Below are positions 16,508 through 59,615 of a DNA stretch of 64,000 nt, in pieces. Both the position numbers and the translations under genes were made by a program. The notes below the pieces were generated by a model. The model worked only from the letters and a program-made list of their open reading frames with translations, did no database searches and had not been told where the DNA came from. Each line of letters begins with the position of its first letter. The stretch's first letter is position 1. The stretch comes from an uncultured archaeon (GTDB lineage Archaea; Iainarchaeota; Iainarchaeia; Iainarchaeales; GCA-2688035): contig CAYHBD010000030.1 of the NCBI GenBank assembly GCA_964354805.1, positions 1 to 64,000 on the forward strand. Direction: 5' to 3'.

Positions 16508-17467
16508 TCAGCTTCTTGCAATTGAGGCGATTTCTTCAAGGCTTTGCGCTTTCTCAAACAGGCGCATTTTTTCTGGGTTCGATGCAAAAAACCTGACTGC
16601 CTGTGTCTTCATCCTGCCCAAATAAGCGCTGATGCCGAACTTTTTGCACAATTCAAGGTATTGCAGGAAAGCCTGCTCCCTGGACAGGAGGTTTGCGCCA
16701 TCAGGCGCGCTTTTCCCAAGGCTTTTTTCCAGCGGGAAAAAAGGCTTGTTGCCCAGAATTTCCGCAAAAATTCCGGGATTGCCTATTGCCGCACTGCCAA
16801 CCATTGCAGCATCACAGCCGGTCTTTTCAAGCATTCGCTCAAAGCTAGGCTTGTTGATTACACCGCCATTCCCTATTACAGGAATGCCAACAGCTTTCTT
16901 GACGCGCTTTATTGCCACAAAGTCAACCAGGCCCCTGTTTTCCTGCTTAATGGTTCGCCCATGCACAGCAATTGCCGAAGCGCCCGCTCTTTCAATCTGC
17001 TTTGCCAGCTTGATTGTGCGCAAAACATTAGGGTCAGACCTTATTTTTGCAGTAACAGGCTTTCCAAGGACATGCCAGCAGGAAATGATTTCGCAAATTC
17101 GCGCAGGCCTCCTCAAAAGCGCGACGCCTGCCCCCTGGTTAAGCACATTACCCGAAGGGCATCCCAGGTTCAAATCCAAAAAATCGAATTCCTTTTCAGC
17201 AATAAGCAGTTCAACCGCCTTTTTCATGCTTTCAACCCTTGCCCCAAAAACCTGCATTGCCAAAGGCCTGTCCTCACCGCAGGTCTGGGCAAGCCTTTTG
17301 ACAGAAAGATTGTTCCTTATAAGGGCCTCAGAATTAATCATTTCCGAATAGCACAAGGAAGCGCCCTGCTCCCTGGCCAAAAGCCTGAAGGCAAGGTCAG
17401 TAACCCTGTACATTGGCGCCAAAACAAGCCTGTTTTCCATTTTTGTGCCGGCAATGCTGAAATCCAT
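16508..17467 (-). CDS. dus: tRNA-dihydrouridine synthase (Dus family)
   Basis: LAPM, DLNLGCP, VHGRT, IGNGG; carries a repeat insertion at 16695-16747. Confidence 0.92.
   Translation of the reverse strand: MDFSIAGTKMENRLVLAPMYRVTDLAFRLLAREQGASLCYSEMINSEALIRNNLSVKRLAQTCGEDRPLAMQVFGARVESMKKAVELLIAEKEFDFLDLNLGCPSGNVLNQGAGVALLRRPARICEIISCWHVLGKPVTAKIRSDPNVLRTIKLAKQIERAGASAIAVHGRTIKQENRGLVDFVAIKRVKKAVGIPVIGNGGVINKPSFERMLEKTGCDAAMVGSAAIGNPGIFAEILGNKPFFPLEKSLGKSAPDGANLLSREQAFLQYLELCKKFGISAYLGRMKTQAVRFFASNPEKMRLFEKAQSLEEIASIARS
16695..16747 (+). repeat. Palindromic repeat family copy, antisense inside dus
   Basis: TTTTCCCAAGGCTTTTTTCC-AGCG-GGAAAAAAGGCTT. Confidence 0.8.
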
Positions 17468-17630
17468 TACAAAAACAATACAGAAAAAGACTATATTCCA
17501 ATGCCCTAATGCACAGGCTTTTGCCGGAAAGCAGTGAAAAACAAAGGCAAAACCCCAAGCCATCTTCGCTCAGCTTTTAATAAAAGCCGGCAAAAACAGC
17601 CTCGCTTTGCTCGGCGAGCTCGATGGAATA

Positions 17631-17745
17631 AGCCCCGGGAGGGATTTGAACCCTCGACCCCCGGCTATCTCGAATTTTTCTTTTCGCACGCCTTTTTCTA
17701 AAAGGCTTTTACGAGGTCGGTGCTCTACCACTGAGCTACCAGGGC
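17631..17745 (-). tRNA. tRNA-Thr(CGT) with a 43-nt intron at 37/38 (17667-17709)
   Basis: Cloverleaf GCCCTGG...GGTTCAAATCC; BHB-like junction with CTCG/CGAG helix and TAA/ATA bulges; 72-nt mature; CCA not encoded. Confidence 0.92.
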
Positions 17746-17812
17746 GCTTCTTTTCTTTAAAGAAAATTGAATGCAAAACGCTTTTTAATCCCTTTTCCTT
17801 AATTGGTGTAGA

Positions 17813-18745
17813 ATGCCCAAGGATGACCAGCAAAAGGTTGAAGTTTTTCTGCGCGAATTTGTTTCAACTCTTACTGAACAACACGCAAAAGAAATTGATT
17901 TTATTCTTCTTTTCGGCAGCGCTGCAAGAGGCGAATTTGTTCTGGGAAAAAGCGATGTGGATTTAATAATCCAAGTGAAAAGCGATGAAAAAAGAAAAGA
18001 GGTTGAAGCGTTTGCCGAAAAGGTTTTCTGGCAGCTTGACAGAAAGCACGGCATGCAGCTAAAGCGCGTTTGTAGCACCGGCATTGGGGCAAGCGTTTTG
18101 GAGAATGCAGTTAAAGCGCTTGAAGCCCGGGCGCGGTTGTACAAGCCATTTGAGGTTTTTGGCCCAAAAGACATTGACTGGCGCAGAGGCATGATTAAAA
18201 GGCTTGACTTGCTGCCGGGCGCTTTTCTGGTTGCAAGCCAGCTGACGCTTTTGTACAAAATGAAGAATGAGGGAAAAATTTTATTCGGCAGGGATATTAG
18301 AAAGGAAATAAGGCCGAGGTTCACGCTTTGGGAGAAGCTGAAAAGCCTTTTTGTTCCCCAAAGCATTTCTTTTGCAGCACTGGCACTTTCGCTTTTCTTG
18401 CCAAAAAAAGCAGTTGCTTATGCCGTAAAAGCAATTTTTTATGAGGTTGAATCAGTGAACCTTTTCCTGCAGAACAAAATACCGAAAAAAGGAAAGGCCT
18501 GCTTTTTTGCAAGGGCAACCGAATTCAGAGACCGGTTATTGGATGATCTGCGGTTCTACATTGAACTGCGTTTTGGTTTGCTTGGCGAACAAAAGCTTGC
18601 TTTTGTAAAAAAGGCTGCCGCAGTTAAAAAGAACGGCTTTCAGGGGGGCAGGGTTGCCGCACTGCGCTTTTGCTTTAATGCATTTTGGGTCATTTACAAC
18701 TGCAATTCAAACATTATCCTGAAAACAATTTTTGCAATTGCCTGA
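17813..18745 (+). CDS. Pol-beta-type nucleotidyltransferase domain protein with helical C-terminus
   Basis: LLFGSAARG...SDVDL. Confidence 0.8.
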   Translation: MPKDDQQKVEVFLREFVSTLTEQHAKEIDFILLFGSAARGEFVLGKSDVDLIIQVKSDEKRKEVEAFAEKVFWQLDRKHGMQLKRVCSTGIGASVLENAVKALEARARLYKPFEVFGPKDIDWRRGMIKRLDLLPGAFLVASQLTLLYKMKNEGKILFGRDIRKEIRPRFTLWEKLKSLFVPQSISFAALALSLFLPKKAVAYAVKAIFYEVESVNLFLQNKIPKKGKACFFARATEFRDRLLDDLRFYIELRFGLLGEQKLAFVKKAAAVKKNGFQGGRVAALRFCFNAFWVIYNCNSNIILKTIFAIA

Positions 18746-18803
18746 AAAACCCCTAACAAAATGTTTAAATATTAGAAACCCGTTCTTTTATCAGGTGATT
18801 TAA

Positions 18804-19316
18804 TTGAACCAGAGCGGACAGGCTTATAGTGTCTTCAAGTTGCTGATTGCCGCAATCATTGCAGTAGCAATCCTTTACATACTTATTTCAATAATCGGCG
18901 GAATCAATATTTTCGGCAGCGATGTTCAAACCGTTGCAAAGCAAATCATTCAAAAGCAGGTTGACATGCCTGGCCAGCTGGACACAAGCACAGCAGCCGT
19001 TTTCAAAGCAGGAACAAACCTGGCGCCAAGCGCACTGGTTGGAAACAGCGGCCTGACCCCAGACCAGATTTGCCTGTATAAGGGTGACCTGGTTGACAAC
19101 CAAGCAGTGGAAGTTACAGGTAGCACACTAATGCAAAACGGGACAACTGATTTAACAGTGAAAATAAGCGTCATGTGCCACAAGGCAAACGCTTTAGTGG
19201 ATGCCCTTGAAGAAGTAGGATTGCCGATTGATTTTGGCGACACAACCACCGGAACTTGTGGATGCAACCTTGATACGCCCCAGAAATGCTGCGTGGTAAT
19301 GCTGAGATTTGCTTAA
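18804..19316 (+). CDS. Pilin-like protein with class III signal peptide
   Basis: MNQSG|QAYSVFKLLIAAII; SD AGGTGA; Cys-rich C-terminus. Confidence 0.75.
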   Translation: MNQSGQAYSVFKLLIAAIIAVAILYILISIIGGINIFGSDVQTVAKQIIQKQVDMPGQLDTSTAAVFKAGTNLAPSALVGNSGLTPDQICLYKGDLVDNQAVEVTGSTLMQNGTTDLTVKISVMCHKANALVDALEEVGLPIDFGDTTTGTCGCNLDTPQKCCVVMLRFA

Positions 19317-19547
19317 GCCCTTCTTTTTCTTTCTTTTTTTTCATTTTTGCTGTTATTGGCTTATCCAAGCTTGTAAGCCAATTAAATTTTCCTGCAATTT
19401 CTTAACTTTGAATACAAAACAATTAGTTTCAATTTACATTCAAAAAAATCGCATTAATAATTTCAATTTTTCAATTAAATGCCATTTAAGCGAAAACCCG
19501 CCTATCCAAAAAAATTAAATATAGCTTTTACCACAATTATTCTTATT

Positions 19548-19721
19548 ATGTTGGCAGTTGTTAAACGGGCGCTCGGCGAGAGGAGGGCTCAGAGTGAGTG
19601 GAGCAGCGTTTACATGCTGATTGTTTTAATTATCGCTGCCCTTCTTTTGATTGCGGTAATAAAGCCGATGTTCAAGCAAAGCCAGAGCATTGTGCAGAAA
19701 ACACAGCCGAAAGCAAGTTAA
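19548..19721 (+). CDS. Small pilin-like protein with class III signal peptide
   Basis: ERRA|QSEWSSVYMLIVLIIAALLL. Confidence 0.65.
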   Translation: MLAVVKRALGERRAQSEWSSVYMLIVLIIAALLLIAVIKPMFKQSQSIVQKTQPKAS

Positions 19722-19838
19722 AGAGCCCGAGGAAAAGGAATCCTTGGGAAAAAAAATTAAAAGGTGCAACTAAAATGCCGAACACAACACTGGCAAAGAG
19801 TGCCCAGGACCCAAAATGAATAATAAAGGTGCAAAGAA

Positions 19839-20660
19839 ATGCTGAACAGAAAAGGCCTTGCGAAGCAATTTTCCCAAAGCTTTTTTTCCGAAGGAAAAAA
19901 AGGCTTAGCAAAGCAATTTTTCCCAGGGGTTTTTTGCACGCGAAGCAATTTTCCCATCTTGCAAAACCCAAGGTTTTGCGAGACCTCGCAAAAGCGAAGC
20001 TTTTGCAAGGAGGCTTTTTTTGCAACGGCAAAAAAAGGCTTAAGCGAAAAAGGCCGAGCTGAAAGCCGTTTTCCCTGGGATTTTTTTGCAACAGCAAAAA
20101 AAGGCCAGGAGAGCGCGCCATTTGAGCTGCTGGTTGCTGTAATAATAATGGGCTTTGTCATATTCATTGGAACAAGTGTAATGCAGCAGGTAAATTGCGA
20201 GAAATGCAAGGGCGAAACCAATGCAAAGCTGGATCGAATGGCAACCGCGTTACAGAATGCTGACGAATCAGGCAGTATTCAACCAAACGTAAGTTTTTTT
20301 TTAAGCGGCTGCTTCAACCAACAGGAAGAAAAAATCTGGATTGAGGACGAAGACGATCCCCAAGTGTGTGCTGCCTATCATTGCGGTGAGAAGCAGTTAT
20401 GCACTTTGCTGAAATACTATGGTAATGGCTGCGGCGGGTTCAGCATCATAAAGTGCCTGGATATCACCCCTGACGCCGATTTTCCTTCCATATCAGGGGG
20501 CAGGTGCGAAGAAAGAGATGGAATGCAATTAGTGGATTTCGAGAAAAGGGAGGAGCCGATAGCAACAGGGGGCAACAAGCAGGGCAACTATTTGCTGTGG
20601 AACAAGACAGGGCAGGGCGACACTTTTTCAACAATCTGCGCTTACAGGAAAGAGGGTTGA
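19839..20660 (+). CDS. Pilin-like protein; signal peptide expanded by an 83-codon repeat insertion
   Basis: MLNRKG-[insert ending KKG]-QESAPFELLVAVII; Cys-rich domain. Confidence 0.8.
   Translation: MLNRKGLAKQFSQSFFSEGKKGLAKQFFPGVFCTRSNFPILQNPRFCETSQKRSFCKEAFFATAKKGLSEKGRAESRFPWDFFATAKKGQESAPFELLVAVIIMGFVIFIGTSVMQQVNCEKCKGETNAKLDRMATALQNADESGSIQPNVSFFLSGCFNQQEEKIWIEDEDDPQVCAAYHCGEKQLCTLLKYYGNGCGGFSIIKCLDITPDADFPSISGGRCEERDGMQLVDFEKREEPIATGGNKQGNYLLWNKTGQGDTFSTICAYRKEG
19857..20105 (+). repeat. Composite array of palindromic repeat units (249 nt, in frame)
   Basis: Several GCGAAGCAATTTTCCC and T-run/loop/A-run-GGC hairpins; AAAAGGCC at both junctions. Confidence 0.88.
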
Positions 20661-20667
20661 TTCAACC

Positions 20668-21330
20668 ATGCTTGGATTCACTTTAAGCAAACTGAATCTG
20701 CTGATTTTGGTGACAGCCTTGTTTGGGATAATTGCATTCTTTTTATTTACGCTAACAGACATGATGGTTGCCAGGTCGGCACAGCAAATGGTCAATGACC
20801 TTGTTGAAAGAACCAGCGGCATTATGACACCGAGCGTTGACTGCTTTGAGGAAACGGTTACAATACCAGAGGAAATAACCTACTTCAGCGGAAAACGCTT
20901 CTATTACGTAATGAAGATATCAAGGGAGCCGGCTGAATACAACTCGGAATATCTAAGCAAATTGATTTTCAAGGTTGCGGCAAGAAAAGAGCAAACCAAA
21001 TTCATTGCAACAAATAGCTATGACATGAATGCAGAAATCATGCTTTACCAATGGCCTGTTGCAGAAATTAGAACTAACCTAAAAGAGCAAAGCAGCATTA
21101 TACTTGATCCAATGAACGAAACTACTGCAAGCAATTCAGTTAAGTTAATAAAAGAGGTTTATAATAGAAAAAATTTCCTGCACGTAATTGCCTGCAATAC
21201 CGACCAAGGGCAGTGTGAAATGAATGAGGGTTATGCAGGCTGCTGCGTAAAAAAATGGAGGGGCGTTGAATCAAGCTGCCTGCCGCCTGCAGAGAATTGC
21301 GAAAACTTGAGCTGCGATACAAGGGGGTAA
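20668..21330 (+). CDS. Pilin-cluster membrane-anchored protein
   Basis: MLG-FTLSKLNLLILV N-terminal hydrophobic helix; Cys-rich tail. Confidence 0.7.
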   Translation: MLGFTLSKLNLLILVTALFGIIAFFLFTLTDMMVARSAQQMVNDLVERTSGIMTPSVDCFEETVTIPEEITYFSGKRFYYVMKISREPAEYNSEYLSKLIFKVAARKEQTKFIATNSYDMNAEIMLYQWPVAEIRTNLKEQSSIILDPMNETTASNSVKLIKEVYNRKNFLHVIACNTDQGQCEMNEGYAGCCVKKWRGVESSCLPPAENCENLSCDTRG

Positions 21331-21335
21331 AAAAA

Positions 21336-21836
21336 ATGAAAAACGGGGGTTTTTTGGGTCCAATTGGGGATGATTTGCCGAGCCTGATTCCGCTGCTTTT
21401 TGCTTTAATGCTTTTTTTTTATGCTTTTACATCTGCTTGGAATAATTTTGACAGGAGGAATGAGGATTTTGCCGATGACCTGGCAGTGCTCAGGGCAAGC
21501 AATGCATTGAGGGGAAACAATTATATTGCGGGAATTGAAAAATTCAATGAAAACTGCGAGACAGCGAAAGGAACCCAGAGAATGCACTTTTTGGCCGGAT
21601 TGCTGCCCTTGCCTACAGGGAAAGATGAGCAATTTGTTGGAATTGATACTGAAAAAATAGTCAGCGGCGATCAAAGCTTTTTTGAAGACTTTCAATGCAG
21701 CAGCACTGAGGAAATACCCGTGCTGGAAAGCGAAAAAAGCGTTGTTAGGTTCTTTCCTGTTGCCTTGGAAACAAAAGAGGAAAACGACAAGTTTTATGTA
21801 AAGCCGATGTTGCTGGTGGTCATTGCATGGAAATAA
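21336..21836 (+). CDS. Pilin-like protein
   Basis: MKNGG-FLGPIGDDLPSLIPLLF hydrophobic helix; ends ...VIAWK. Confidence 0.7.
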   Translation: MKNGGFLGPIGDDLPSLIPLLFALMLFFYAFTSAWNNFDRRNEDFADDLAVLRASNALRGNNYIAGIEKFNENCETAKGTQRMHFLAGLLPLPTGKDEQFVGIDTEKIVSGDQSFFEDFQCSSTEEIPVLESEKSVVRFFPVALETKEENDKFYVKPMLLVVIAWK

Positions 21837-22648
21837 AGCTTGGCGAAAAAGGTCCTGTTTTGCGAAGCCTATTTTCCCCAGGCTTTTGCAACAGCAAAAG
21901 GCTGTTGCGAAGCAAAACCCATTTCCCTGGGATTTTTTGCACGCGAAGCAATTTTCCCAAGGCTTTTTCACGAAGTGAAAAAGGCTTAAGCGAAAAAGGC
22001 CAGTCCAGTTTGACTGATTCCATGTTTTTCCTGGTAATAGCCAGCATTTTGAGCACTTGGCTTTTCTATTCAAGCGCAACCTACGGCCTGACAATAGACC
22101 AGCAAATTTCAAGGCAGGGCAGGGAGGAATACACCAAGTCTGCGCTTGAAACAATTTTGTACAGCAGCGCGCCGAGGCAGGCAGGCCTTTCTTTGGAAGA
22201 AGCATCAGAGATTGACTACCTGCTTGCGGCAATAAAAGAGGACTACGCTGATGACACTGAACTGGATGAAACAAAAGCAATTCTTTTCCAGAACATAAAT
22301 GCCGTAATGCAGCCGCTTGCAACAAACAGCAACTACCTTTTCTACATATATATTGCTCAAAAAAATAAATTTGTTGTCACTTTTTTGTACGCAAGCGAAG
22401 CAAAAAACGATGACGGCTGGAGCTTAACCGGCAACAAAATTGTTTTTTCCTGCGTGCCGCCAAGCAAGCAGGCAGTGGAAGAATTCCTGCTTACGGTTGG
22501 CAGGATGTCTGTCAGCAACAGCAGAATTCAGCTGCTTGAATCAAAAGAGCCGGCTCCTGACAGATACGATGCCCTAATCACTTTAATCACTTGGATTCCA
22601 ACGCCAGTTGATGAAAGCGACCTAAACTGCACTAAATTCACTGGCTGA
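21827..22648 (+). CDS. Pilin-like protein; signal peptide expanded by a 49-codon repeat insertion
   Basis: MEIKLGEKG-[insert ending EKG]-QSSLTDSMFFLVI. Confidence 0.8.
   Translation: MEIKLGEKGPVLRSLFSPGFCNSKRLLRSKTHFPGIFCTRSNFPKAFSRSEKGLSEKGQSSLTDSMFFLVIASILSTWLFYSSATYGLTIDQQISRQGREEYTKSALETILYSSAPRQAGLSLEEASEIDYLLAAIKEDYADDTELDETKAILFQNINAVMQPLATNSNYLFYIYIAQKNKFVVTFLYASEAKNDDGWSLTGNKIVFSCVPPSKQAVEEFLLTVGRMSVSNSRIQLLESKEPAPDRYDALITLITWIPTPVDESDLNCTKFTG
21854..22000 (+). repeat. Composite array of palindromic repeat units (147 nt, in frame)
   Basis: Three GCGAAGC motifs and two GGCTTTT...AAAAGGC hairpins; GCGAAAAAGG at both junctions. Confidence 0.88.
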
Positions 22649-23345
22649 ATTTTTTCCCGCAATCAGGACAGACTACTGTTTCAATGCTGCCAATCCTTTC
22701 AACCTTCTTCGCGCAAGAATAACAAAAAGCTGTTCCGCACTCAGGGCAGAAAACCACTTTGCTTGCAGGCTTTGCGCATTTCGGGCACTGCTGTTCCGCT
22801 TCACCAAGATCGCCCAAACTGAATTCTTCACCTTCTTCCTTCTGCACTACACTCTGCGCTCCCTTCTTTTCCTCTGCAAAAATATCCTCAACACTCAAAG
22901 AAGCGAGTTCTTTAGCTTTATCACCCTGCGATTGCCCGGCAATTTGCTTATCCGCTTCTTCAAATTCAGACCATTCCTTTTCATCGCCCTCCGCTGTCTC
23001 CTTTTTCCCTTCCACGGATTCCCTGCCTCTTCTCCTTTCAATCTGTTTGCTGGCCTGCTCCCTTACATCTTTGTCCTTTAATTGCTGGAAAATGTTTTCT
23101 GCAATCTGGTCGTACTCGGCTTTTTCAGGGTATCTTTTGTGCTCTTCCCTGAATTTCCTCACTTCCTGCAAAGTCAAATGCATTGTCACATCCTTATCAG
23201 CCGCCTGTTTAGGCTGATCTTTTGGCATCTGTTCAAACAAATAGTCGGCAACGCCGCCAACTTCCTTTTCGGCTGCCAAACCACCCTTTTGTTCAGCACC
23301 CTGCCTGTAAAAGCGCTTCATCCTTCTCGGAATTTCCTCAGCCAT
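22638..23345 (-). CDS. Hypothetical charged protein with C-terminal multi-CxxC zinc ribbons
   Basis: CPKC, CPECG...CYSC, CPDCG. Confidence 0.75.
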   Translation of the reverse strand: MAEEIPRRMKRFYRQGAEQKGGLAAEKEVGGVADYLFEQMPKDQPKQAADKDVTMHLTLQEVRKFREEHKRYPEKAEYDQIAENIFQQLKDKDVREQASKQIERRRGRESVEGKKETAEGDEKEWSEFEEADKQIAGQSQGDKAKELASLSVEDIFAEEKKGAQSVVQKEEGEEFSLGDLGEAEQQCPKCAKPASKVVFCPECGTAFCYSCAKKVERIGSIETVVCPDCGKKFSQ

Positions 23346-23409
23346 AAAAAAACAACCTGCTTTGCTAAAATTCTTTTCCAACCCAAAAAATGCTTCTTTT
23401 TTTCCCGAT

Positions 23410-24897: not shown

Positions 24898-25001
24898 AAT
24901 TAACTAAAATAATGGATTAAGTGTTTTAATAAATTGCTGTTTTTGCCATTAAGGCTGATTTTCGCAATTTCCGCTTCTTGATTAATCTTTTAAATTATTG
25001 A

Positions 25002-25826: not shown

Positions 25827-25833
25827 GTGGATC

Positions 25834-27044: not shown

Positions 27045-27106
27045 TGCTTCCTATAGCCCTGCAGCAATTTATTATAAATTTTCCCTCACCCCATATTATT
27101 ATCCAT

Positions 27107-27279
27107 GGACCCATAGCCTAGTGGATAGGGCAACTAAAGAGGTGAGTTTTTCAATTCTCTCTTTTGCAAGCCTCCTAAAGCCTTTTCTTTAGAAAAGAAA
27201 AGGCTTGCGAAAAGAAATTTTTCGCTCTGCAAAAAACGGGGCTAGCAGTAGGTCGTGGGTTCGATTCCCACTGGGTCCG
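27107..27279 (+). tRNA. tRNA-Arg(CCT) with two introns: 34 nt at 29/30 (27136-27169) and 66 nt at 37/38 (27178-27243)
   Basis: Removing both restores the ACTGC/GCAGT stem and a 73-nt cloverleaf; strict BHB (GCAA/TTGC, CTA/AAG) for intron 1; CTCC/GGGG helix with TAA/CTA for intron 2. Confidence 0.9.
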
Positions 27280-27280
27280 T

Positions 27281-28667: not shown

Positions 28668-29402
28668 CTAAATCCTGAGCGCGAATGTTTCCCTCTTTTT
28701 CTGTTTCCCTGTCCTGTCAACTCCAATCAGCTTGAATGTTTTCGTTGCATCTGTTTTGAATTCTTTTTCCAGCTGCTTTACAGCCAAGGCAGCTGCTTTT
28801 TTTGATCCGACTATTGCATCGATTGAGTTTTTTTTCTGTGTTGCGGAAACAATTGCGGCCAGACCGTCTCTTTTTTGCAGGGATGCGAGCAATTGCCTCA
28901 GCCTGTTGAAAGCAGCAGCTGCTTTTTCCCCCCTAAGCTGCACTATTGCCTCAAAGTAATTGCTTTTCAGCTTCATGCAAGCATCGCACTGCATTGCGGG
29001 AAAAGAGATTGTTGTTTTCCTTTCAACCAGAACAGGCGTGTTTTCAATTACGCCCTTTGCCGTTACGATTGCCTGCATTTCCTTTTCACTCAACCGCTGC
29101 AATTCAACTGACAGGGCAGCATCTGTCAGCTCCTTAACCTTGCATTTTTTTTTGACGAACTGCTTCAATAGTTCCAAGTCAAAAGCGTGCATTTTCCCTG
29201 AAAGCAAAATTTTTCCGCATTGCTTGCAGCGCTGCAACTCGATTTTTTCAGGCAACTGCAGAAGCGTGTGCTCTTTCAGGAAGCACTGGAGGCAGCTGCC
29301 CCTTACAAAAAGGCTGTCTGTTGCACCGCAGCTCGGGCAAAATAATCTGCCCAAAGCCTTTTTGCCTTTTGGCAAAAAGCCTTGGGAAAAGTTGCTTCGC
29401 AT
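28668..29402 (-). CDS. nmd3: NMD3 family protein
   Basis: FCPSCG...CLQC, CKQCG, CDAC...YFEAIVQLR. Confidence 0.88.
   Translation of the reverse strand: MRSNFSQGFLPKGKKALGRLFCPSCGATDSLFVRGSCLQCFLKEHTLLQLPEKIELQRCKQCGKILLSGKMHAFDLELLKQFVKKKCKVKELTDAALSVELQRLSEKEMQAIVTAKGVIENTPVLVERKTTISFPAMQCDACMKLKSNYFEAIVQLRGEKAAAAFNRLRQLLASLQKRDGLAAIVSATQKKNSIDAIVGSKKAAALAVKQLEKEFKTDATKTFKLIGVDRTGKQKKRETFALRI
29354..29400 (-). repeat. Palindromic repeat family copy at the 5' end of NMD3
   Basis: GCGAAGCAACTTTTCCCAAGGCTTTTTGCC-AAAA-GGCAAAAAGGCTT. Confidence 0.85.
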
Positions 29403-49304: not shown

Positions 49305-49380
49305 AAGGCTGTTGTGTTGTCATGAATTAATGTTCTCCAACAATTAATGCAGCACATTCCTGTGCGCAAACTGCCCTGTT

Positions 49381-49956: not shown

Positions 49957-50032
49957 CTTCCGAATTTTTCCGCTTTGGGCAGAATAATAATCGCTCTTTT
50001 ATTTAAATAGTTTTCCTATTTTATTGATTTAG

Positions 50033-50956: not shown

Positions 50957-51015
50957 TTTGAATTGATTGTGATTGATGCAAAAAAAACTGCATTTTGGGC
51001 TGGAAGTGATTTCAT

Positions 51016-51426: not shown

Positions 51427-51435
51427 GGGAGAAAA

Positions 51436-51762: not shown

Positions 51763-51766
51763 CTGG

Positions 51767-52435: not shown

Positions 52436-52526
52436 ATTTATCCTCTGTTGCATTTCGTAACGCGTCTGCAAAAGCATTTTTTGTTTTTGCCGAGCTGTTG
52501 TTAGCCTCAAGGTAAAAGAAAAGAAA

Positions 52527-52664
52527 TTACCAGTTTGGCCTTCTTTGCTCTTGCTGCATCCTGTAATGGCAGCCTGGGCATTCAAGAGTCATAAGAACCC
52601 TGTCGCCGGCCAATTCAGCGAAATCAACGGCTCTCATTTCTGTTCCGCATTTCGGGCAGCGCAT
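52527..52664 (-). CDS. 45-aa CPxCG zinc-finger microprotein
   Basis: Hand translation MRCPKCGTEMRAVDFAELAGDRVLMTLECPGCHYRMQQEQRRPNW. Confidence 0.75.
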   Translation of the reverse strand: MRCPKCGTEMRAVDFAELAGDRVLMTLECPGCHYRMQQEQRRPNW

Positions 52665-52792
52665 TTGAGGTCAAATGATTTATGGGGGGCAATTGTTTAA
52701 AAGGATAATTTGGCAGGAGGGGATTCAGCGAAATATTGCTCGGCTTGGGAATTGTTTTAAAAGGATAATTCAGGGTTTTTATTTTGGTTCTT

Positions 52793-53470
52793 ATGGCAAT
52801 AAAGGCTGTTTTGTTTGATTTGGATAACACTTTGGTTGACTTCATGCGGATGAAGCAGCTGTGCAGCGAGGCTGCGATTCACGCAATGAGGGATGCCGGC
52901 TTGCAAATGCAGCATGGCAAGGCATTGCGCTTGCTGTTCAAATTGTATGAGAAGCACGGGATTGAAGACCAGAAAATTTTTGAGAAATTTTTGCGAAAAG
53001 CGATTGGCGCTGTTGACTACAGGATTCTGGCACAGGGTATTGCCGCTTACAGGAGAGTAAAGGCAGGCTACCTGGTCCCTTACCCCCATGTCAGGGAAAC
53101 ACTGATTAAGCTGAAAGAAAATGGCATTGCGCTCGGAATAGTGAGCGATGCCCCGAGAATGCAGGCATGGCTCAGGCTGGCTGAAATGAATTTAACCGAA
53201 TTCTTTGATTTGGTGATTGCATTGGAGGACACAGGGCAAAAAAAGCCGAGCAAGCTGCCTTTCAGGCAGGCGATAAAAAAACTGCGCATTAAGCCAAAAG
53301 AAATTCTTTTCGTCGGAGACAACCCGCAAAGAGATATAAAGGGAGCGAAAAGCGTTGGAATGAGGACAGCCCTGGCGCGCTATGGGCAATTGATGAAAGG
53401 AAAAGCAAAAGCGGAATTTGTTTTAAACGACATAAGCGATTTGGCAAAAATAGTAAAGACGTATACATAA
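52793..53470 (+). CDS. HAD-superfamily hydrolase
   Basis: FDLDNTL, VSD, KKP, VGDNPQRDI. Confidence 0.92.
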   Translation: MAIKAVLFDLDNTLVDFMRMKQLCSEAAIHAMRDAGLQMQHGKALRLLFKLYEKHGIEDQKIFEKFLRKAIGAVDYRILAQGIAAYRRVKAGYLVPYPHVRETLIKLKENGIALGIVSDAPRMQAWLRLAEMNLTEFFDLVIALEDTGQKKPSKLPFRQAIKKLRIKPKEILFVGDNPQRDIKGAKSVGMRTALARYGQLMKGKAKAEFVLNDISDLAKIVKTYT

Positions 53471-53484
53471 CAGAAGTTGTTTGC

Positions 53485-54486
53485 TCAAGTGTACTCCTTA
53501 AACATGAAACCTTTGTTTTTTTGAAAAAATTCCCTTGCCAGCTCTATGCATTTCATTAACGCAGCTTTTATGTCTTCTCCTTCTCCGTTGAAGCCTGCTG
53601 CGCCTGCATGGCCTCCGCCGCTCCCTGGATAGAATGCAGGCATTTTTTGGAAAACGTCTTTTGCCAAATCAAACCCTGTTTTTTTCAAAACGTGCTGTGC
53701 TGCCCTGCCGCTGATGCGAAGCTTTCCGTCATCGCTGTCGCCGGCAAATGCGATGTCTGCGCCGATTTTCACCAGTGTTGATGCAGCATCAGCTTCAAAC
53801 GCCCCGATGTCTGCTGTTGCCGCAATGAAATCGTTAATCCTGAATATCCTGCTTCTTTTCGCTGCTTTCAATGCAGCAATCTTTTGGTCGAATGTTAATG
53901 GAGCTGAGAAAAGGCTAAGCAGCCAGCTCAGGTTTTTTTTGTTCTTTTGCATTACTGCCGCCATTATTGCAAATGTTTTGCTGTTTGCTGTCTGAAAGTG
54001 GGCGCTGTCAGTTACAATGCCTGCTGCAATGCATGTTGCAATTCGTTCATCAATCGGAATGCGGTTTTTTTGCAGCAAGTCGAATACTATTTCGCAGCTT
54101 GCGACAGCTTCTGGGTTTATCAGGGCATTTACCCTCTTGCCGATTTTTTCGCCTGTTTTTTCGTGGTGGTCGATTAAATAGATTGGACCGTTAAAGCGCT
54201 TTATTGCGTCTGCTGCGCTGCCGGCCATTGAAAGACTGTTGAAATCCACAAGGAAAAGGCAGCCAAAGCTTGAAATGTCATCGAATCCGTTTAAGTGGTA
54301 CGGGATTTTTTGTTTTTCCGCAAAAGCTTTTGCTGGCTTTGCAATGTGTTGCGGAACAGCGATTTCCACTTTGTTTTTTTTGCTTAATGCGAAAGACAAC
54401 CCCGCTGCTGCAGCAATTGCGTCAACATCGCAGCCTGCGTGCGTTACAATTAGGATTTTTTTTCCTTTAATGCTGCTAAGCTGCAA
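53485..54486 (-). CDS. DHH/DHHA1 phosphoesterase
   Basis: THAGCDVDA, IDHH, GIVTDS, GGGHAGAAG. Confidence 0.9.
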   Translation of the reverse strand: MQLSSIKGKKILIVTHAGCDVDAIAAAAGLSFALSKKNKVEIAVPQHIAKPAKAFAEKQKIPYHLNGFDDISSFGCLFLVDFNSLSMAGSAADAIKRFNGPIYLIDHHEKTGEKIGKRVNALINPEAVASCEIVFDLLQKNRIPIDERIATCIAAGIVTDSAHFQTANSKTFAIMAAVMQKNKKNLSWLLSLFSAPLTFDQKIAALKAAKRSRIFRINDFIAATADIGAFEADAASTLVKIGADIAFAGDSDDGKLRISGRAAQHVLKKTGFDLAKDVFQKMPAFYPGSGGGHAGAAGFNGEGEDIKAALMKCIELAREFFQKNKGFMFKEYT

Positions 54487-54592
54487 AGCAAAACCACTTT
54501 CCTGCCCAAGGGGTTACTATTAAATTACTGCAGAGTTAAAGCACAAGCCTATTTTTTCTTTTTCTGCCGCTTCTGCGGCGTCTGGCGCTGGC

Positions 54593-54967
54593 TTATTTTT
54601 TCTTTTCTTCTTTTTCTGTTTCTTTTACTATGTCTGTTGCTGCCCCTTGCTTTGATTCAATCTCTGATTTCAGCTTGTTCAGCTTGTTCACAAGGCTGTC
54701 TTCCTGCTTTTGCAGTGTTTTTACCCTTAAATCAGTTGATTCCTTTTTTTCCTCTAATTCCTTTTTCACAACTGGGGTGTCTGTCTGGATTAATATGTTT
54801 CCGACAGCTTTGTAGACGCGCTTTTCCTTTGTTTTTGCCAGCTCGTCCAGTGCCTGCTGCAATGCCGAACTCTGCATCTGCAGCTGCTGTTTTTGCCCTG
54901 AAACAGTGAACAGCTGTGACCTGCTTCTCTCGAATTCCCTGGCTTTCAATTCAATTCCTTCAACCAT
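54593..54967 (-). CDS. pfdB: Prefoldin beta subunit
   Basis: Coiled coils around VYKAVGNILI. Confidence 0.92.
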   Translation of the reverse strand: MVEGIELKAREFERSRSQLFTVSGQKQQLQMQSSALQQALDELAKTKEKRVYKAVGNILIQTDTPVVKKELEEKKESTDLRVKTLQKQEDSLVNKLNKLKSEIESKQGAATDIVKETEKEEKKK

Positions 54968-54970
54968 TTG

Positions 54971-55318
54971 CTATTCCTCCAAAATGCTTTTTGACAAAAT
55001 AATCGAATTAACTATGCTGTTAACGCTTGCCCTCAGTGCGGTTGCATCTGATGCATTAATACCTATTTGCACTGCATTGTTTTTAATTTTAACATGTGTT
55101 GCGCTTCTCTTAGCATGCACTGCATTTAATTCTGGACCAATTGCTTTCAAAAAAATGCCTGCTTCTTTTTTCGGCACAGCAATGCTGATGCTCAAATCAA
55201 AGCCTTTTTTGCTTAAGCCTTTTGCTTCGCAAAACCCTTGGGAAATTTGCTTCGCCTGCAAAAAACCCTTGGGAAAAGGGTTTTGCTTACGCAAAACATA
55301 TTCCGGTGAATGCTGCAA
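54971..55318 (-). CDS. pcc1: KEOPS subunit Pcc1 with repeat-derived N-terminal extension
   Basis: PEL...RS...INASDATALRASVNS; TTG start with SD GAGGT. Confidence 0.85.
   Translation of the reverse strand: MQHSPEYVLRKQNPFPKGFLQAKQISQGFCEAKGLSKKGFDLSISIAVPKKEAGIFLKAIGPELNAVHAKRSATHVKIKNNAVQIGINASDATALRASVNSIVNSIILSKSILEE
55202..55292 (-). repeat. Palindromic repeat family copy in the pcc1 5' region
   Basis: Colinear with 21907-22000 but with an altered hairpin tip (TTTTGC-GAA-GCAAAA). Confidence 0.88.
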
Positions 55319-55324
55319 GCGCGA

Positions 55325-55459
55325 TTACCTCGCTTTGATGTTTTTTGCAATCGGTTCCCTGACTTTGTACATTATTTTGTAAGCGCAGACTGGGCAGCGC
55401 AGGATTCCTTCAGGCAGGGCGTTGATTACTTCACCGCATTTAGCGCATTTGTAAGGCAT
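55325..55459 (-). CDS. rpoP: RNA polymerase subunit Rpo12 (RpoP)
   Basis: YKCAKCG...RCPVCAYKIMYKVR; SD GGAGGT; superoperon position. Confidence 0.9.
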   Translation of the reverse strand: MPYKCAKCGEVINALPEGILRCPVCAYKIMYKVREPIAKNIKAR

Positions 55460-55481
55460 TCTCATTACCTCCCAAAAAAAA

Positions 55482-56132
55482 TTATTTTTTCTTTCGCTCT
55501 TCTTTCTTTTCTTTTGCTTTCTCTTTTCCTTTTGTTTCCTTTTCAATTCTCTTTTCTTTTCGTTCTCTTGGCGCAATTTTTTCTTTTCTTTCTTTGCCGA
55601 TTTCTTTTTCTTCGTGTTCCCCTAATTGCTTTTCCTCACTGCCGATTTGTTTTTCTTCTGGCTTGCGCTCTTTCCATTCTATTGTTTCTTTTCCTTGTCC
55701 GAAAAAGTCCCTTCTTCCTTTTCCTCGCTCTCTCCATTCCCTTCTTTCCCTGTAGATTTCCCTGCTTGCTCTTCCGCCCCATTCCCTTTTTCCCTCTGCC
55801 CCGCTTTCATCGCCTGCCTCTTCTTCTGCCCAGTCTTCTTTTGTGCTTAGCAGTTCTTTCATTGAAGGCAAAAAGCTTCTCTGGGCAACCATTTTTTGCA
55901 CAATCGAGCCAGGCAAAGTGGTGGGCAAATACGCGCCTCCTGCGAATGTGTTATCGCATTTCCTGCAGCTATAGATGCCTGGCGCTTTTCTCCTCACTCT
56001 CTCGGCTCCGCAGAACGGGCATGGGTAGTATTTGTGCTGCTTGCTTTCAATTTTAAGCAGGCTTTTTCTTATGCCAACGCCGTATCTTGCCCCATAGCGC
56101 CCAGCGGTTTTAACTTTTAAAGTGTTGCCCAT
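55482..56132 (-). CDS. rpl37ae: Ribosomal protein L37Ae (eL43) with long charged C-terminal extension
   Basis: GRYGARYG, CPFCG, GIYSCRKC, FAGGAY. Confidence 0.92.
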   Translation of the reverse strand: MGNTLKVKTAGRYGARYGVGIRKSLLKIESKQHKYYPCPFCGAERVRRKAPGIYSCRKCDNTFAGGAYLPTTLPGSIVQKMVAQRSFLPSMKELLSTKEDWAEEEAGDESGAEGKREWGGRASREIYRERREWRERGKGRRDFFGQGKETIEWKERKPEEKQIGSEEKQLGEHEEKEIGKERKEKIAPRERKEKRIEKETKGKEKAKEKKEERKKK

Positions 56133-56210
56133 ATATTACAGAACTCCTGCTTTTGAAAATCCTTACAGCAGTTTCATGCACTCTTTTTCCTCTAGCTGCC
56201 CCCTGTTCGC

Positions 56211-56990
56211 TTACAGCAGTTTCCTTATCTCTTTCCCTTTGCGCATTGCAACGTCAAGGCAGTTTTCTATCTCGGCTGATGTGAATGCTCCGCCCAAGCC
56301 TTTTTGGAAAGCGCAGAACAAATTGTCCTCTGTTGTTGCGCAGCTGAACCTTGCCTCCATTGCCTTTTCCTCTACAAGAGCCGGGTCCAAAACAACTTTG
56401 CCCCCGATTTTTGCAAAGGTTGAAAGCAGCGGTTTTCTGCTCAGGTGCAGCTTGCCCGCAAATTCCCCTTTAACTATCTTGTCTTCCTCCAGCTTTGGGT
56501 ACTTTGTTTCAAGCAGTGCGGACATTGCCGCAATGCTGCTTGCGTCAAACAGGTTTCCGTCGTCGTTCATCATGTACAGGTCAATGTACACCATCCAGAC
56601 TTTTTCCTTTTCAACAATGCACAGCTTCTTGAAATCAATTGTTTTGCTTTCCCTAATGCCCCTGTCAACAACCCTTGCCAGCTCTGTCGCCTCCTCTCTT
56701 GGAGGCCCTGACTCAAAGCTAGGCGAAGCCAGCGGCAGGAATTCTGCTCCAACGCTTATACTGCCTTCGTCAGGCATATCTGGGAATGGCGTAGCAGGCT
56801 CCATTTTAATGCCTGCGATCACGTCCGTTTCTCCGAGCAAAACCCTTGCTGAACCGTTTGCGTTCTCGCTTATGTTGTGCTGGATTTTCACTTCCCTGTA
56901 TTCGTCAACTTTTCTGGCATCCAGCCTTTTCCCTTCTTTTATTGCCTCTATTACTTTGTCGCTCTTCAGAGCCCAAATCGCTTCTTCCAT
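56211..56990 (-). CDS. rrp42: Exosome subunit Rrp42
   Basis: RLDAR, ANGSA, PFPDMPDEG, ELARVVDRGIRES, DGNLFDA. Confidence 0.95.
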   Translation of the reverse strand: MEEAIWALKSDKVIEAIKEGKRLDARKVDEYREVKIQHNISENANGSARVLLGETDVIAGIKMEPATPFPDMPDEGSISVGAEFLPLASPSFESGPPREEATELARVVDRGIRESKTIDFKKLCIVEKEKVWMVYIDLYMMNDDGNLFDASSIAAMSALLETKYPKLEEDKIVKGEFAGKLHLSRKPLLSTFAKIGGKVVLDPALVEEKAMEARFSCATTEDNLFCAFQKGLGGAFTSAEIENCLDVAMRKGKEIRKLL

Positions 56991-57748
56991 TACGCATCAC
57001 CTTTTTCGCTGCTTTCCTGTTTCTCCGCAGCAAGGAACCTTTTCCGCAGCGCTTCCCGCTGAATTTCGTAAATCTGCTTGCACCCCTTCATTGCCAGCTG
57101 CATTGACTTGTGCCATTCCTCTTTTGAAAGCAACCCGTCCATTTGCATTAAAACAATCTCCTCTGTTCTCGGCATTATTGCAACAGGCATATCTACTGCA
57201 TCCGGCGCGTCCTCTTCATCCTTATCCAAGTCAAGTATTACTTCACCGCCTGCTTTGCCTACTCCCACAGCTGTAACCAGGTCTCGCATTGGAACACCCG
57301 CATCAGCCAATGCAACTGAAGCTGCTGTCAATGCGGCAACTCTTGTGCCTGCATTGCTGTCCAAGACCTCAACGAAGACATCTATTGTCGTGTTTGGAAA
57401 GCGCTCCAAAAAAATCGCTTTTTGCAGGGCTTCGCCTGAAACCTTGCTTATCTCAATTTCCCTTCGCCCTGGCTTTGGCATCTTTCTGTCCGGAACACTG
57501 AAACTCGCCATCCTGTACTGGTAGTCCACCAATGCCTTGTAAGGGTTTTGAATGTGCTTTGGCAGCGCTTCTCTTGGGCCGTAAACCCCTGCAACTATTT
57601 TGTTCTGTCCCCATTCAATGTAAGCCGAGCCGTCTGCCCTGCTCAAAACCCCGGTCTCAATCTTTATCGGTCTCAATTCATCCAATTTTCTTCCGTCCAA
57701 CCTTTTTCCGTTTTTGACGTATTCGATTTTTTCTTCTTTTTTCTTCAT
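56990..57748 (-). CDS. rrp41: Exosome subunit Rrp41
   Basis: RLDGRKLDELRPI, ADGSAY, GPRE, RREIEIS. Confidence 0.95.
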   Translation of the reverse strand: MKKKEEKIEYVKNGKRLDGRKLDELRPIKIETGVLSRADGSAYIEWGQNKIVAGVYGPREALPKHIQNPYKALVDYQYRMASFSVPDRKMPKPGRREIEISKVSGEALQKAIFLERFPNTTIDVFVEVLDSNAGTRVAALTAASVALADAGVPMRDLVTAVGVGKAGGEVILDLDKDEEDAPDAVDMPVAIMPRTEEIVLMQMDGLLSKEEWHKSMQLAMKGCKQIYEIQREALRKRFLAAEKQESSEKGDA

Positions 57749-57979
57749 TCTCAATCAACACCTTCTCTTTTTTTAAAAATCAACTGCTTTTTTTTCAATT
57801 CTCACTTATTTTTTCCATCTCTTCTCTTTTTCCTCAATTCAATCCAGCTAATTGCCCACTTCAATTTATTTTATTATTTTTTATTCCTCTTTTTTTCTTA
57901 ATTCAATTCCAACCAATTGCTTTTTTCATTTGATTTGCTTTTTTCTTTTCCCTCAAATCAATTCCATTTTTATTGACAT

Positions 57980-58663
57980 TTATTGCTTCTGTTCGCTTTG
58001 GGGCTTTTGTTCGATTTTGGCTCCTTTTTTCTCTTTCAGGAAAGCAGCAACCTTGTTGGTGAGATTGCTTAGGTGGGATTCCCTTTCAATCAGTTCAACT
58101 GCTTCAATGAACAATGGCACATTGCCACCCTTTACCCAAACCCAACCGTTTCTCCCTACAATTGGGTTGCTTTCACTTCCATCCTTGAGCACGTTCAGCA
58201 TTGAACCGTTCTTTCCAATAATGCGAGGCACTTTCGCAGGGCTGACTTCAATGACCTCGCCACCGTAGAAAACCCTTATGTCCTCCAATCCGGCCTCGTT
58301 TATTTCATTCACATCCCTGATGATTGCGCTGATTACGCCGCCCCTCTTTAATTCATACCTTACATCGTCCTTTGAAACAAAGCTGCGGTAAATGCTGTTT
58401 ATGTCAACAATGTAGCTGTTGAATGTTTCCCCTGAAATTATTCCGACAATCAAATCATCCCTCACAGGGAGATACCTTCCGTGCAATGGCACAACATAAG
58501 CAGCGCCTGAATCAGGGTAGGTTATTCCCAAAGCGTCGGAATAAACCTTTCCGTTCTCAACAAAAACATGCTGCCCAATGCTTTTCCTTTCCTCAGTAAC
58601 CAAATCGCCGGGAATAACTATTTTCTTCTGCTTCTTTTCAACTTCAACTGCTTCCTCTTCCAT
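57980..58663 (-). CDS. rrp4: Exosome subunit Rrp4
   Basis: VIPGD, S1 domain, KVPRIIGKNGSM, VGRNGWVWV. Confidence 0.94.
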   Translation of the reverse strand: MEEEAVEVEKKQKKIVIPGDLVTEERKSIGQHVFVENGKVYSDALGITYPDSGAAYVVPLHGRYLPVRDDLIVGIISGETFNSYIVDINSIYRSFVSKDDVRYELKRGGVISAIIRDVNEINEAGLEDIRVFYGGEVIEVSPAKVPRIIGKNGSMLNVLKDGSESNPIVGRNGWVWVKGGNVPLFIEAVELIERESHLSNLTNKVAAFLKEKKGAKIEQKPQSEQKQ

Positions 58664-58732
58664 TCTTTACCACACGTCCTTCAGTTTTTCCGTTTTTTTT
58701 TATTTCTCCTTCCTACTATCTTTGCCCCTGCT

Positions 58733-59437
58733 TTACCTTTCGCCTTCCTGCACGATTTTTGTTTCGCATGCCCCGTGGCATACTGCGTTCAATTCATTCA
58801 GAAAATCCTGTTTCATTCCGCCTGGCAATTCAACAACCGCAACCAGGCTGCCGTCGTTCTGCCATTGCTCTTTTACCACCTTGAACCTGTGCACTGTTGC
58901 AGCGCCCCTGCCGCTGTGTTCTGCGCCGATTTTCACTGCAATCTGCAAATGCTGCATTGAAATCGGCAGAATCCTCTTGAGCTCCTTTAAAATCTCCGGC
59001 AGCTGCTCTTCAACCGATTTGTTTTCATCAACCCTGATTTTCGCTTCAATCAATGCATTTTCAATCCTTTTGGGCGGATGCGGTGCTGCTGTCTGGGGAT
59101 TGATCGCGTTCCTTGCAATGAATTCAACCACTTCCCTTTCCCTTGCTTCCTTCATTGCTTTCCTTTGCTCTGTTGTTAAATGCAGTATGCCCTGCAAAAT
59201 TATTTTTTTTGCGATTACCGCAACATCTGTTGAACCAAAGACCTTGTTCAATGCAGCTGGGCTTTGCGCTTCGCCCTTGCTCGCGTCCTTGAATACTGTG
59301 TCCACTGCAAGCAAATCGCTTAAGCCCACTTGTTTCCCTTTTTTTAACTGCATTGCAAGGTCTGGGTCAACCAATATTTCAAATTTTTCTCCGAATGATT
59401 CCAGCCTTGCAGTAACAGCATTCTCCAAGTTAACCAT
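58733..59437 (-). CDS. Ribosome maturation factor SBDS/Sdo1
   Basis: FEILVDP, FKDASKG, LTTEQR, PHPPKRIE. Confidence 0.94.
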   Translation of the reverse strand: MVNLENAVTARLESFGEKFEILVDPDLAMQLKKGKQVGLSDLLAVDTVFKDASKGEAQSPAALNKVFGSTDVAVIAKKIILQGILHLTTEQRKAMKEAREREVVEFIARNAINPQTAAPHPPKRIENALIEAKIRVDENKSVEEQLPEILKELKRILPISMQHLQIAVKIGAEHSGRGAATVHRFKVVKEQWQNDGSLVAVVELPGGMKQDFLNELNAVCHGACETKIVQEGER

Positions 59438-59507
59438 GCTACCTCAAAAACTCCTTTTGATAAAAAAAATGTTTTTACGTTTTTTTTCTTTGAAAAAATC
59501 AATGCTT

Positions 59508-59615
59508 GCAAAGCAATTGCCCTTTCCCCCATAATGCCAAGCTAAAGAATTATTTGTTTTTGTTCCATTGCTTGGCATTATGCCAAGGCTTTTTTCCCGC
59601 AGGAAAAAAGGCTTA
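59508..59615 (+). repeat. Intergenic palindromic repeat family copy with an extra internal hairpin
   Basis: GCAAAGCAATT..TTTCCCC-[CATAATGCCAAGC...GCTTGGCATTATG]-CCAAGGCTTTTTTCC-CGCA-GGAAAAAAGGCTTA. Confidence 0.82.

Follow-up and report, generated by a model that had tools for sequence, protein, structure and literature searches.

The 64,000-nt window that we analysed (contig CAYHBD010000030.1, positions 1 to 64,000) comes from an uncultured archaeon with a 1.38-Mb genome assembly that is 88.5% complete. Its genes are archaeal and include NMD3, Pcc1, proteasome alpha, and Dus (Pfam assignments), together with pilin-like open reading frames (ORFs) and tRNA genes. Among and within them lie copies of a small palindromic repeat with a unit of 45 to 57 nt, which is the subject of this report. 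An initial annotation, made from the letters of the window, had described a shared hairpin unit in a DPANN-type host and listed six loci. The unit was present at all six. The host assignment was also borne out. The nearest named relative of the Dus gene is in a Candidatus Iainarchaeum metagenome-assembled genome (MAG), and the next ones are in archaeal MAGs. We searched the literature on Iainarchaeum and DPANN and found no published description of the repeat.

Written in the TTTTCCC orientation, the unit consists of three parts. The first is a short variable hairpin (GCGAAGC, GCC-GAA-GGC, GCAATTGC-GAA-GCAATTGC, GCGCC-NNNN-GGCGC, and others). The second is a pyrimidine tract, T(n)C, then CC. 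The third is a hairpin, AAGGC-T(3-7)-tip-loop-tip'-A(3-7)-GGCTT, with a G.G mismatch. T(n)CCC and AAGGC are the conserved flanks. The five tips quoted by the initial annotation all read as it had claimed (TCC-GAA-GGA at 19885, CAC-GAA-GTG at 21968, GCC-AAAA-GGC at 29354 on the minus strand, GC-AACA-GC at 21884, and TCC-AGCG-GGA at 16727). Its nine GCGAAGC motifs inside copies were found too: 9 of the 16 occurrences in the window fall within about 700 nt of repeat, and the total by itself is unremarkable (16 versus 12.9 expected). The annotation had also emphasized that the G.G mismatch persists where neighbouring pairs change. The mismatch is indeed kept while the pair outside it covaries (AAGGC..GGCTT 70, CAGGC..GGCTG 7, AAGGC..GGCTG 1, and CAGGC..GGCTT 0). 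However, it is not universal. Diverged units in tRNA introns have other foot sequences, and some have perfect feet without any mismatch. The mismatch is a mark of the main subfamily only, not a requirement.

The stems are maintained by compensatory change. Across 45 aligned units, 98.2% of the stem cells were paired and 54 cells had changed on both sides, although master copies as a common source mean that these counts overstate independent events. None of 500 shuffles equalled the observed covariation score. Seven stretches were folded as single-stranded DNA with a program that models hairpins and not triplexes. Hairpins with a 1x1 mismatch resulted. Six of the stretches had z-scores between -2.6 and -5.7, and the seventh, the unit upstream of Pcc1 (55212-55260, minus strand), folded no better than shuffles (z = +0.16). 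Rfam has no family for the unit, and its only match in the window was a tRNA.

The repeat is abundant. Its 16-mer core, TTTTCCCAAGGCTTTT, has 45 exact occurrences in the genome, versus about 0.001 expected. With up to three mismatches allowed, there were 21 cores in the window versus 5.6 expected, and none of 100 shuffles had as many. A strict hairpin pattern found 97 units genome-wide, so the further copies that the initial annotation had anticipated do exist. We also built a covariance model (CM) from 45 units, as that annotation had proposed. It gave 10 matches in the window at E ≤ 5e-4, at seven loci: the six described earlier and one in a tRNA-Glu intron (Table 1). Within the family, the exact 15-mer core occurred in 17 of 22 genomes (0 to 115 copies each), and the CM had matches in 54 of 101 genomes sampled across the order. 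A mobile repeat is expected to be as patchy as this, and as unequal in copy number.

Table 1. Copies of the repeat in the 64,000-nt window, with covariance-model (CM) results
Feature	Position	Strand	Description
Dus unit	16694..16747	+	One 54-nt unit; CM E=5.8e-13
tRNA-Thr intron unit	17676..17708	+	Diverged, at intron start; CM match weak, E=0.22
First pilin-leader array	19858..20106	+	249 nt (83 codons); several units, including a nested multi-hairpin module X
Second pilin-leader array	21853..21999	+	147 nt (49 codons), in frame
tRNA-Glu intron unit	27178..27218	-	C-interrupted; CM E=8.4e-7; absent from the initial annotation
NMD3-upstream unit	29350..29402	-	53 nt; GCGAAGC mini-hairpin and main hairpin; CM E=1.9e-12
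Pcc1-upstream array	55199..55296	-	Two to three units; CM match 55215-55251
Composite unit	59508..59614	+	Small hairpin and pyrimidine tract; CM E=3.4e-9; fold z=-5.6

Five copies in the window had been assigned to ORFs. Three of the loci, Dus and two pilin leaders, are true in-frame inserts, but the others are not genic. The Dus unit consists of hairpin A (TGCGCC-ATCA-GGCGC), then TTTTCCC, then hairpin B (AAGGC-T6-CC-AGCG-GG-A6-GGCTT). It is in frame and antisense to the gene (16508-17563, minus strand), with the translation KPFFPLEKSLGKSAPDGA, and comes after the TIM-barrel domain. The AlphaFold (AF2) model of Dus has a mean pLDDT of 91, with low values only at the insert (residues 241-260), which is modelled as coil between the barrel and the C-terminal helices, that is, between two domains. 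The insert is missing from 11 orthologues and from metagenome contigs L158 and L159. A contig that is about 90% identical shares it and has an extra 54-nt multi-hairpin module that keeps the frame. The same type of 54-nt unit was found in a second genome, G016.

The two pilin-like ORFs (19839-20660 and 21827-22648) encode different 273-residue proteins with class III (pilin-type) leaders. Each array is in frame between K-G and Q of the leader and recreates the K-G/Q site at its end. In the first ORF, the left flank of the array, AAAAGGCC, recurs at the right end; the array had CM matches at 19864-19906, 20011-20040, and 20064-20107 and folded with z=-5.7. Orthologues of this ORF begin MLNRKGQESAPFELL, without the insert. 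In the second ORF, a 10-nt direct repeat, GCGAAAAAGG, lies at 21843-21852 and 21990-21999, and CM matches were at 21867-21904 and 21947-21987. Orthologues begin MEIALGRRGQ or MEIALSQRGQ (MEIALGRRGQAALTD), again without an insert. The region from 19839 to 22648 (plus strand) is a conserved, syntenic cluster of pilin-like genes found order-wide, with class III signal peptides (KGQ, then a hydrophobic helix). Pilin orthologues in two other genera (G004 and G006) have different inserts at the same leader position. Therefore, the pilin leader is a recurrent landing site.

The remaining loci with supposed genic copies are upstream of native starts or intergenic. The NMD3 unit lies between a former TAATG start overlap and the NMD3 body (MGRLFCPSCG), with TGGG repeats at its flanks, and its left end provides a new in-frame ATG (29402-29400). 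The Pfam NMD3 match begins past the unit, and NMD3 in G016 begins MKSQNFCPLCG straight after the upstream stop. The Pcc1 array precedes the Pcc1 domain, for which the Pfam match starts at ORF residue 42. The Pcc1 start is likely a TTG at about 55195, leaving the array intergenic or in the 5' leader. In G016, Pcc1 overlaps the upstream gene with no repeat in between. Near this locus, a 216-residue ORF (55482-56132, minus strand) starts with 84 residues of ribosomal protein L37ae and continues as a long tail in pyrimidine-rich, internally repetitive DNA, either a real tail or an over-extension of the ORF. The composite unit lies between two convergent genes, a 318-residue ORF (58578-59534, plus strand) and proteasome alpha (59655-60380, minus strand; Pfam). 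In it, a hairpin module with a 12-bp stem (ATAATGCCAAGC...GCTTGGCATTAT) is nested before AAGGC, and the main hairpin follows. As the initial annotation had argued, structure rather than peptide is conserved, in that the peptide reading changes with frame and strand.

Genome-wide, the focus of that annotation on genic copies needs adjustment. Some copies are truly in frame, but they are mostly intergenic rather than genic. By crude longest-ORF gene calls, which weaken these figures, 43% of units were intergenic (11% expected at random), 25% were inside genes (68% expected), and 7.6% were in tRNA introns (0.3% expected, an approximately 25-fold enrichment). Outside the window, two inserts of 45 nt lie in Elp3 and one of 54 nt lies in a class I tRNA synthetase, and in all cases the orthologues are empty. 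In the opposite direction, two G016 genes have inserts at sites that are empty in the host genome. Units were also found in Fic, CoaE-like, and DHH genes (Pfam assignments). When the other genic candidates were compared with 366 kb of G016, no more empty sites were found, which is explained by units that lie upstream of the conserved protein body. Empty alleles in orthologues, which the initial annotation had named as something to look for, were thus found, and the empty sites in Dus, Elp3 (two sites), the synthetase, the pilin leaders, and the G016 genes indicate that the repeat is mobile. At the level of sequence, they prove insertion at new sites.

Other placements were seen on other contigs of the assembly (C numbers). 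In C47:16373-17578, C25:14927-16849, and C16:23335-25128, units occupy part of the first 10 to 45 codons, before a pilin-type or transmembrane N terminus. Secreted or membrane proteins may thus offer favoured and tolerated sites in their N-terminal leaders. Seven ORFs stop exactly at a unit boundary (C7 13109, C9 82688, C10 34615, C16 23304, C16 62825, C16 64971, and C16 93017), where TAA overlaps the AAGCC end of the element (read T-AAGCC), a hint that the 3' end of a gene can be replaced or defined by an insertion. Candidates for genes split by frame-breaking units turned out to be separate neighbouring genes, or units placed just past a stop codon.

The initial annotation had not noticed the enrichment in tRNA introns. 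Using ARAGORN with introns enabled, we found 44 tRNAs in the genome, of which 26 have introns. Of these introns, at least 15 open, within their first bases, with a hairpin and then a matching purine tract, and the orientation is identical in all 15. Two further units begin one base after tRNA 3' ends. In the window, default ARAGORN detected no tRNA, Rfam detected one, and ARAGORN with introns detected two. tRNA-Glu(TTC) (27106-27280, plus strand; the ARAGORN boundaries look doubtful) has an 80-nt intron with a unit antisense to the tRNA, TTTTCTTT-AGA-AAAGAAAA plus a third tract, AAAAGAAA. tRNA-Thr(CGT) (17631-17745, minus strand) adjoins Dus and has a 43-nt intron. In a relative that is about 90% identical, this intron is 114 nt long and has two different units. 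Elsewhere in the genome, ARAGORN also called a tRNA with anticodon TTA, which reads the UAA stop codon, with a 17-nt intron (C42:83948-84039, minus strand).

A second feature that the initial annotation missed, although its hairpin unit was right, is a third tract. Read against the pyrimidine arm of the hairpin, the pyrimidine tract that precedes CC-AAGG is its mirror image rather than its complement. Among units in which the T run is interrupted by C, the patterns CTTTCTTT, CTTTCTTTC, CTTTCTTTT, CTTTCTTTTT, and CTTTTCTTTTT each have their own mirror upstream. A full-length mirror was found for 12 of the 17 C-interrupted units in the host genome and for about 10 of 14 in 366 kb of G016, where two more are short by one base. 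In a run-length test of the mirror, 26 of 29 units in the host genome matched, and none of 5,000 permutations was as good; in G016, 10 of 11 matched. Where the arms are asymmetric, there were 12 mirror-type and 2 direct-type cases in the host genome and 6 versus 0 in G016, giving 18 versus 2 for both genomes together. In the tRNA introns, nine or more distinct patterns are each paired with the matching third tract.

In homopyrimidine/homopurine tracts, mirror symmetry is the sequence code for an intramolecular triple helix. The alternatives, a Watson-Crick hairpin or a site for a dimeric protein, would not predict mirror symmetry. We infer that a single strand of the unit can fold as a hairpin whose major groove takes up a third strand, forming T.A-T and C+.G-C triples. 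Where further hairpin modules are nested (in the Dus insert of contig L156, at 19940-20010, and at 59530-59584), they sit precisely in the stretch that connects the third tract to the hairpin, a place where a loop can grow.

We then considered the ends of the element. In all nine resolved inserts the termini are identical, from the foot of the small hairpin on the left to GGCTT on the right. In five of the nine insertions, 6 to 12 nt of the left flank equal the right end of the element, A(n)GGCY (AAAAGGCC, GCGAAAAAGG, GCAAAAGGCTG, AAAAGGCTT, and AAGGCT). Insertion directly after A(n)GGCY explains the head-to-tail arrays. Flank repeats range from 0 to 12 nt, and there is no target duplication of fixed length.

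Taken together, the loci are probably copies of a small non-autonomous repeat that is still turning over across this DPANN order, with a triplex-type fold and selective filtering of its copies. We give this reading a probability of roughly 0.7. In it, a single strand of the unit (DNA, or RNA in the TTTTCCC orientation) would fold as a hairpin with a third strand, and new copies would often land immediately behind a stretch similar to the A(n)GGCY right end. Selection would then filter the copies. They would be kept between genes and, in one orientation only, in tRNA introns. In protein genes they would be kept only if their length is a multiple of three and the place is tolerant (a domain linker or a cleaved pilin leader), and tolerated inserts would be translated as a new peptide segment. 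The initial annotation had proposed a REP- or RPE-like non-autonomous element. Its dispersed, modular, and structure-conserved character and its RPE-like in-frame inserts are retained here, but its link to HUH/Y1 enzymes is not.

Several observations weigh against this reading, in addition to the inflated covariation counts and the crude gene calls noted above. Units of the plain T-run subfamily have a third tract of 3 to 9 Ts plus C, and its length does not track stem length. A few C-interrupted units have no matching tract. The triplex is read from covariation in the sequence. In four of the nine insertions, flank homology is weak or none (weak in Dus, a 4-nt TGGG in NMD3, and none at Elp3 site 1 and the synthetase), so that the target rule is a tendency only. 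As for a mobilizing enzyme, family searches of the 88.5%-complete genome gave no match to TnpB (PF07282), reverse transcriptase, DDE_Tnp_1, or rve. The two Y1_Tnp genes that the genome does have are IS200-like (C35:614-967 and C13:1382-1729), and the end hairpin of these copies, GGGAAcCCgCaCCCTTcAGGGtGcGGAGGATGTCA, is unrelated to the repeat, with no unit nearby.

Other candidates for a mover were no closer. Two tyrosine recombinase genes are present, one with a strong Phage_integrase match (C45:5982-6470) and the other, at C10:30692-31153, with a weaker match and roughly 600 nt away from tRNA-Ser(GCT); we linked neither to the repeat. Genes flanked by inverted units were considered as transposases, but they are housekeeping genes (a RIO-type kinase, FtsZ, and a small HTH protein). 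We tentatively favour, at a little under even odds, an enzyme that acts on the defined ends of the folded single strand. The junction pattern would fit both such an enzyme, with an end-like target, and template switching guided by microhomology.

The second of these possibilities needs no dedicated enzyme. The hairpin or triplex would stall replication, and the nascent strand would switch template at A(n)GGC, copying one or more units of an array. Variable direct repeats of 4 to 12 nt link flank and element end in five to six of the nine events, whole units are inserted (such as 2 x 54 nt in G016 and the pilin-leader arrays), head-to-tail arrays are common, and the family searches of the genome gave no transposase candidate for the repeat. 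In bacteria, intrastrand triplex repeats have been tied to local genome instability (PMC4666352). However, the constant termini occur even without microhomology (Elp3 site 1 and the synthetase), which fits defined ends better, and the tRNA-intron units begin in the first intron bases in 15 of 15 cases, which needs added selection. Enzyme-free template switching at stalled forks is doubtful as the mover, and the remaining probability belongs to other routes. A broader version is also on the unlikely side: the triple-helical fold would stall replication or meet a housekeeping enzyme and seed new copies at A(n)GGC sites without a transposase. The repeat would then be the long-sought donor by which archaeal tRNA introns arise and grow, and it would also add new loops and leader extensions to essential proteins.

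The initial annotation had looked instead to REP/RAYT- or IS200/IS605-type systems, in which an HUH Y1 transposase recognizes mismatched hairpins and, acting in trans, mobilizes them as single-stranded DNA. We consider this quite unlikely. It would account for two different hairpins at constant termini in all resolved inserts, for the lack of a fixed-length target duplication, and for insertion that tends to follow a right-end-like sequence, much as IS200/IS605 elements insert 3' of a short target; and the genome does have Y1_Tnp genes. However, the ends of those genes' elements are unrelated to the repeat, as described above, and no Y1/HUH transposase or reverse transcriptase gene flanked by the repeat was found, with no reverse transcriptase in the genome searches at all. 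Among 40 relatives, the presence of Y1 did not co-occur with repeat copy number (G001 has 27 cores and no Y1, G004 has seven Y1 genes and 2 cores, and G023 has five Y1 genes and no core). There is no conserved head of the GTAG type, and the arrays run head to tail rather than as REPIN-style inverted doublets. We therefore rejected the Y1/HUH link for this genome and these relatives. The two IS200-like copies (C35:1-2467 and C13:1-1804) are diverged from each other, consist of a Y1 transposase only, and share left- and right-end hairpins.

A host-serving signal under selection (a bidirectional terminator, an RNA-stabilizing site, or a protein-binding site) has only a small probability. Both strands have runs of T5 to T7 that look like archaeal termination signals, many copies directly adjoin the ends of genes, including the seven ORFs that stop at a unit boundary, and intergenic sites are enriched. 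However, there was no orientation bias relative to flanking genes (28 versus 25 at 5' ends and 22 versus 25 at 3' ends), on which ground we rejected a terminator or untranslated-region function. Copies also lie within essential genes and tRNA introns, where termination would harm; presence or absence at the same site differs between close relatives; and copy number goes from 0 to more than 100 within one family.

Finally, the genic copies might be bulge-helix-bulge (BHB) introns of the tRNA type, cut from mRNA by the splicing endonuclease so that the proteins are unchanged. The nine resolved genic inserts or modules are 54, 45, 45, 54, 249, 147, 108, 51/54, and 54 nt long. All nine are multiples of three, versus 5 of 17 periods of non-genic arrays (Fisher p ~6e-4). 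Splicing would lift this constraint, and so we predict that the genic inserts are translated as new peptide segments and not spliced out. Although tRNA introns are filled by the same units, in the orientation of most genic copies, we consider the BHB reading very unlikely, with the frame statistics arguing against splicing: the inserts are also stop-free, the secondary 54-nt Dus module of the relative is in frame too, the pilin arrays restore their cleavage site, and no BHB geometry was apparent at the Dus junctions by eye, without a formal search.

The repeat resembles several known systems in part. RPE of Rickettsia (Ogata et al. 2000, via PMC10969869) are bacterial repeats of about 100 to 150 bp that lie in frame in genes and also between them. 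Both are small palindromic repeats without a transposase of their own that add an in-frame peptide segment to unrelated housekeeping genes, with the protein kept. Here, in-frame palindromic inserts with empty orthologues were found in Dus, Elp3 (twice), the synthetase, the two pilin leaders, and two G016 genes. However, the archaeal unit is shorter (45 to 57 nt) and modular, and neither a third mirror tract nor residence in tRNA introns is reported for RPE. Only about a quarter or fewer of the archaeal units are genic. The likeness is one of behaviour, and a relation in sequence is not expected.

The bacterial BoxC, PIT, and TM_ECO repeats are likewise dispersed, have three consecutive tracts that obey the triple-helix code, have been linked to local variability of the genome, and have no known dedicated enzyme (PMC4666352). 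By that code, the archaeal unit scored 26 of 29 and 10 of 11 in the two genomes at the sequence level. However, the motif studied in bacteria is G/C-rich and intergenic (PMC4666352), whereas the archaeal unit is A/T-rich, with T.A-T and one or two C+.G-C triples, and has an extra small hairpin, arrays, and in-frame genic and tRNA-intron copies. REP, BIME, and REPIN elements share high copy number, imperfect palindromes, a conserved mismatch, mosaic arrays, a mostly extragenic location, and uneven copy number between genomes (PMC3116915, PMC3337134). The archaeal repeat differs from them in having no cognate single-copy, repeat-flanked RAYT (an HUH Y1 enzyme) and no GTAG head, in its head-to-tail arrays, and in its genic and intronic copies, with about a quarter of units in ORFs or leaders. 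For miniature IS200/IS605-derived elements, which have different hairpins at the two ends, insert 3' of a short target without duplication, and have a TnpA with matching ends in the genome, the comparison is mixed. Two different end hairpins and constant termini were seen in 9 of 9 events and a right-end-like left flank in 5 of 9, but the only TnpA genes of this genome have unrelated ends and no TnpB was found. Classical miniature inverted-repeat transposable elements do not match, given ends that are different hairpins, flank repeats of 0 to 12 nt, and no DDE_Tnp_1 or rve in the genome. By these comparisons, the repeat combines in its behaviour the in-frame genic inserts of RPE, the modular hairpins of REP/BIME mosaics, and the triplex repeats of the PIT/BoxC kind.

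The route by which introns enter archaeal tRNA genes is unsettled. Several such routes were tested for Asgard tRNA introns in a 2026 preprint, which left the matter open (bioRxiv 10.64898/2026.10.13.758758). In Thermoproteales, tRNA intron "transposition" has been described (Fujishima et al. 2010, via the same preprint): related sequences occur in introns of different tRNA genes in one genome, implying spread between genes. As far as that account goes, no dispersed donor is described there, whereas the archaeal repeat also occurs between genes and in proteins and so is a visible donor of intron sequence. One dispersed family that provides both free copies and the body of most long tRNA introns, with turnover seen between genomes that are about 90% identical, would be a concrete and testable donor.

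For annotation of these MAGs, the repeat means that starts are mis-called (NMD3, Pcc1, and the pilins) and tRNAs are missed by automatic tools. The three-tract mirror code points to a triple helix as the conserved feature of a mobile element. In this very small archaeal genome, the repeat may also create peptide segments in the manner of RPE, in Dus, Elp3, a tRNA synthetase, and the leaders of pilins.

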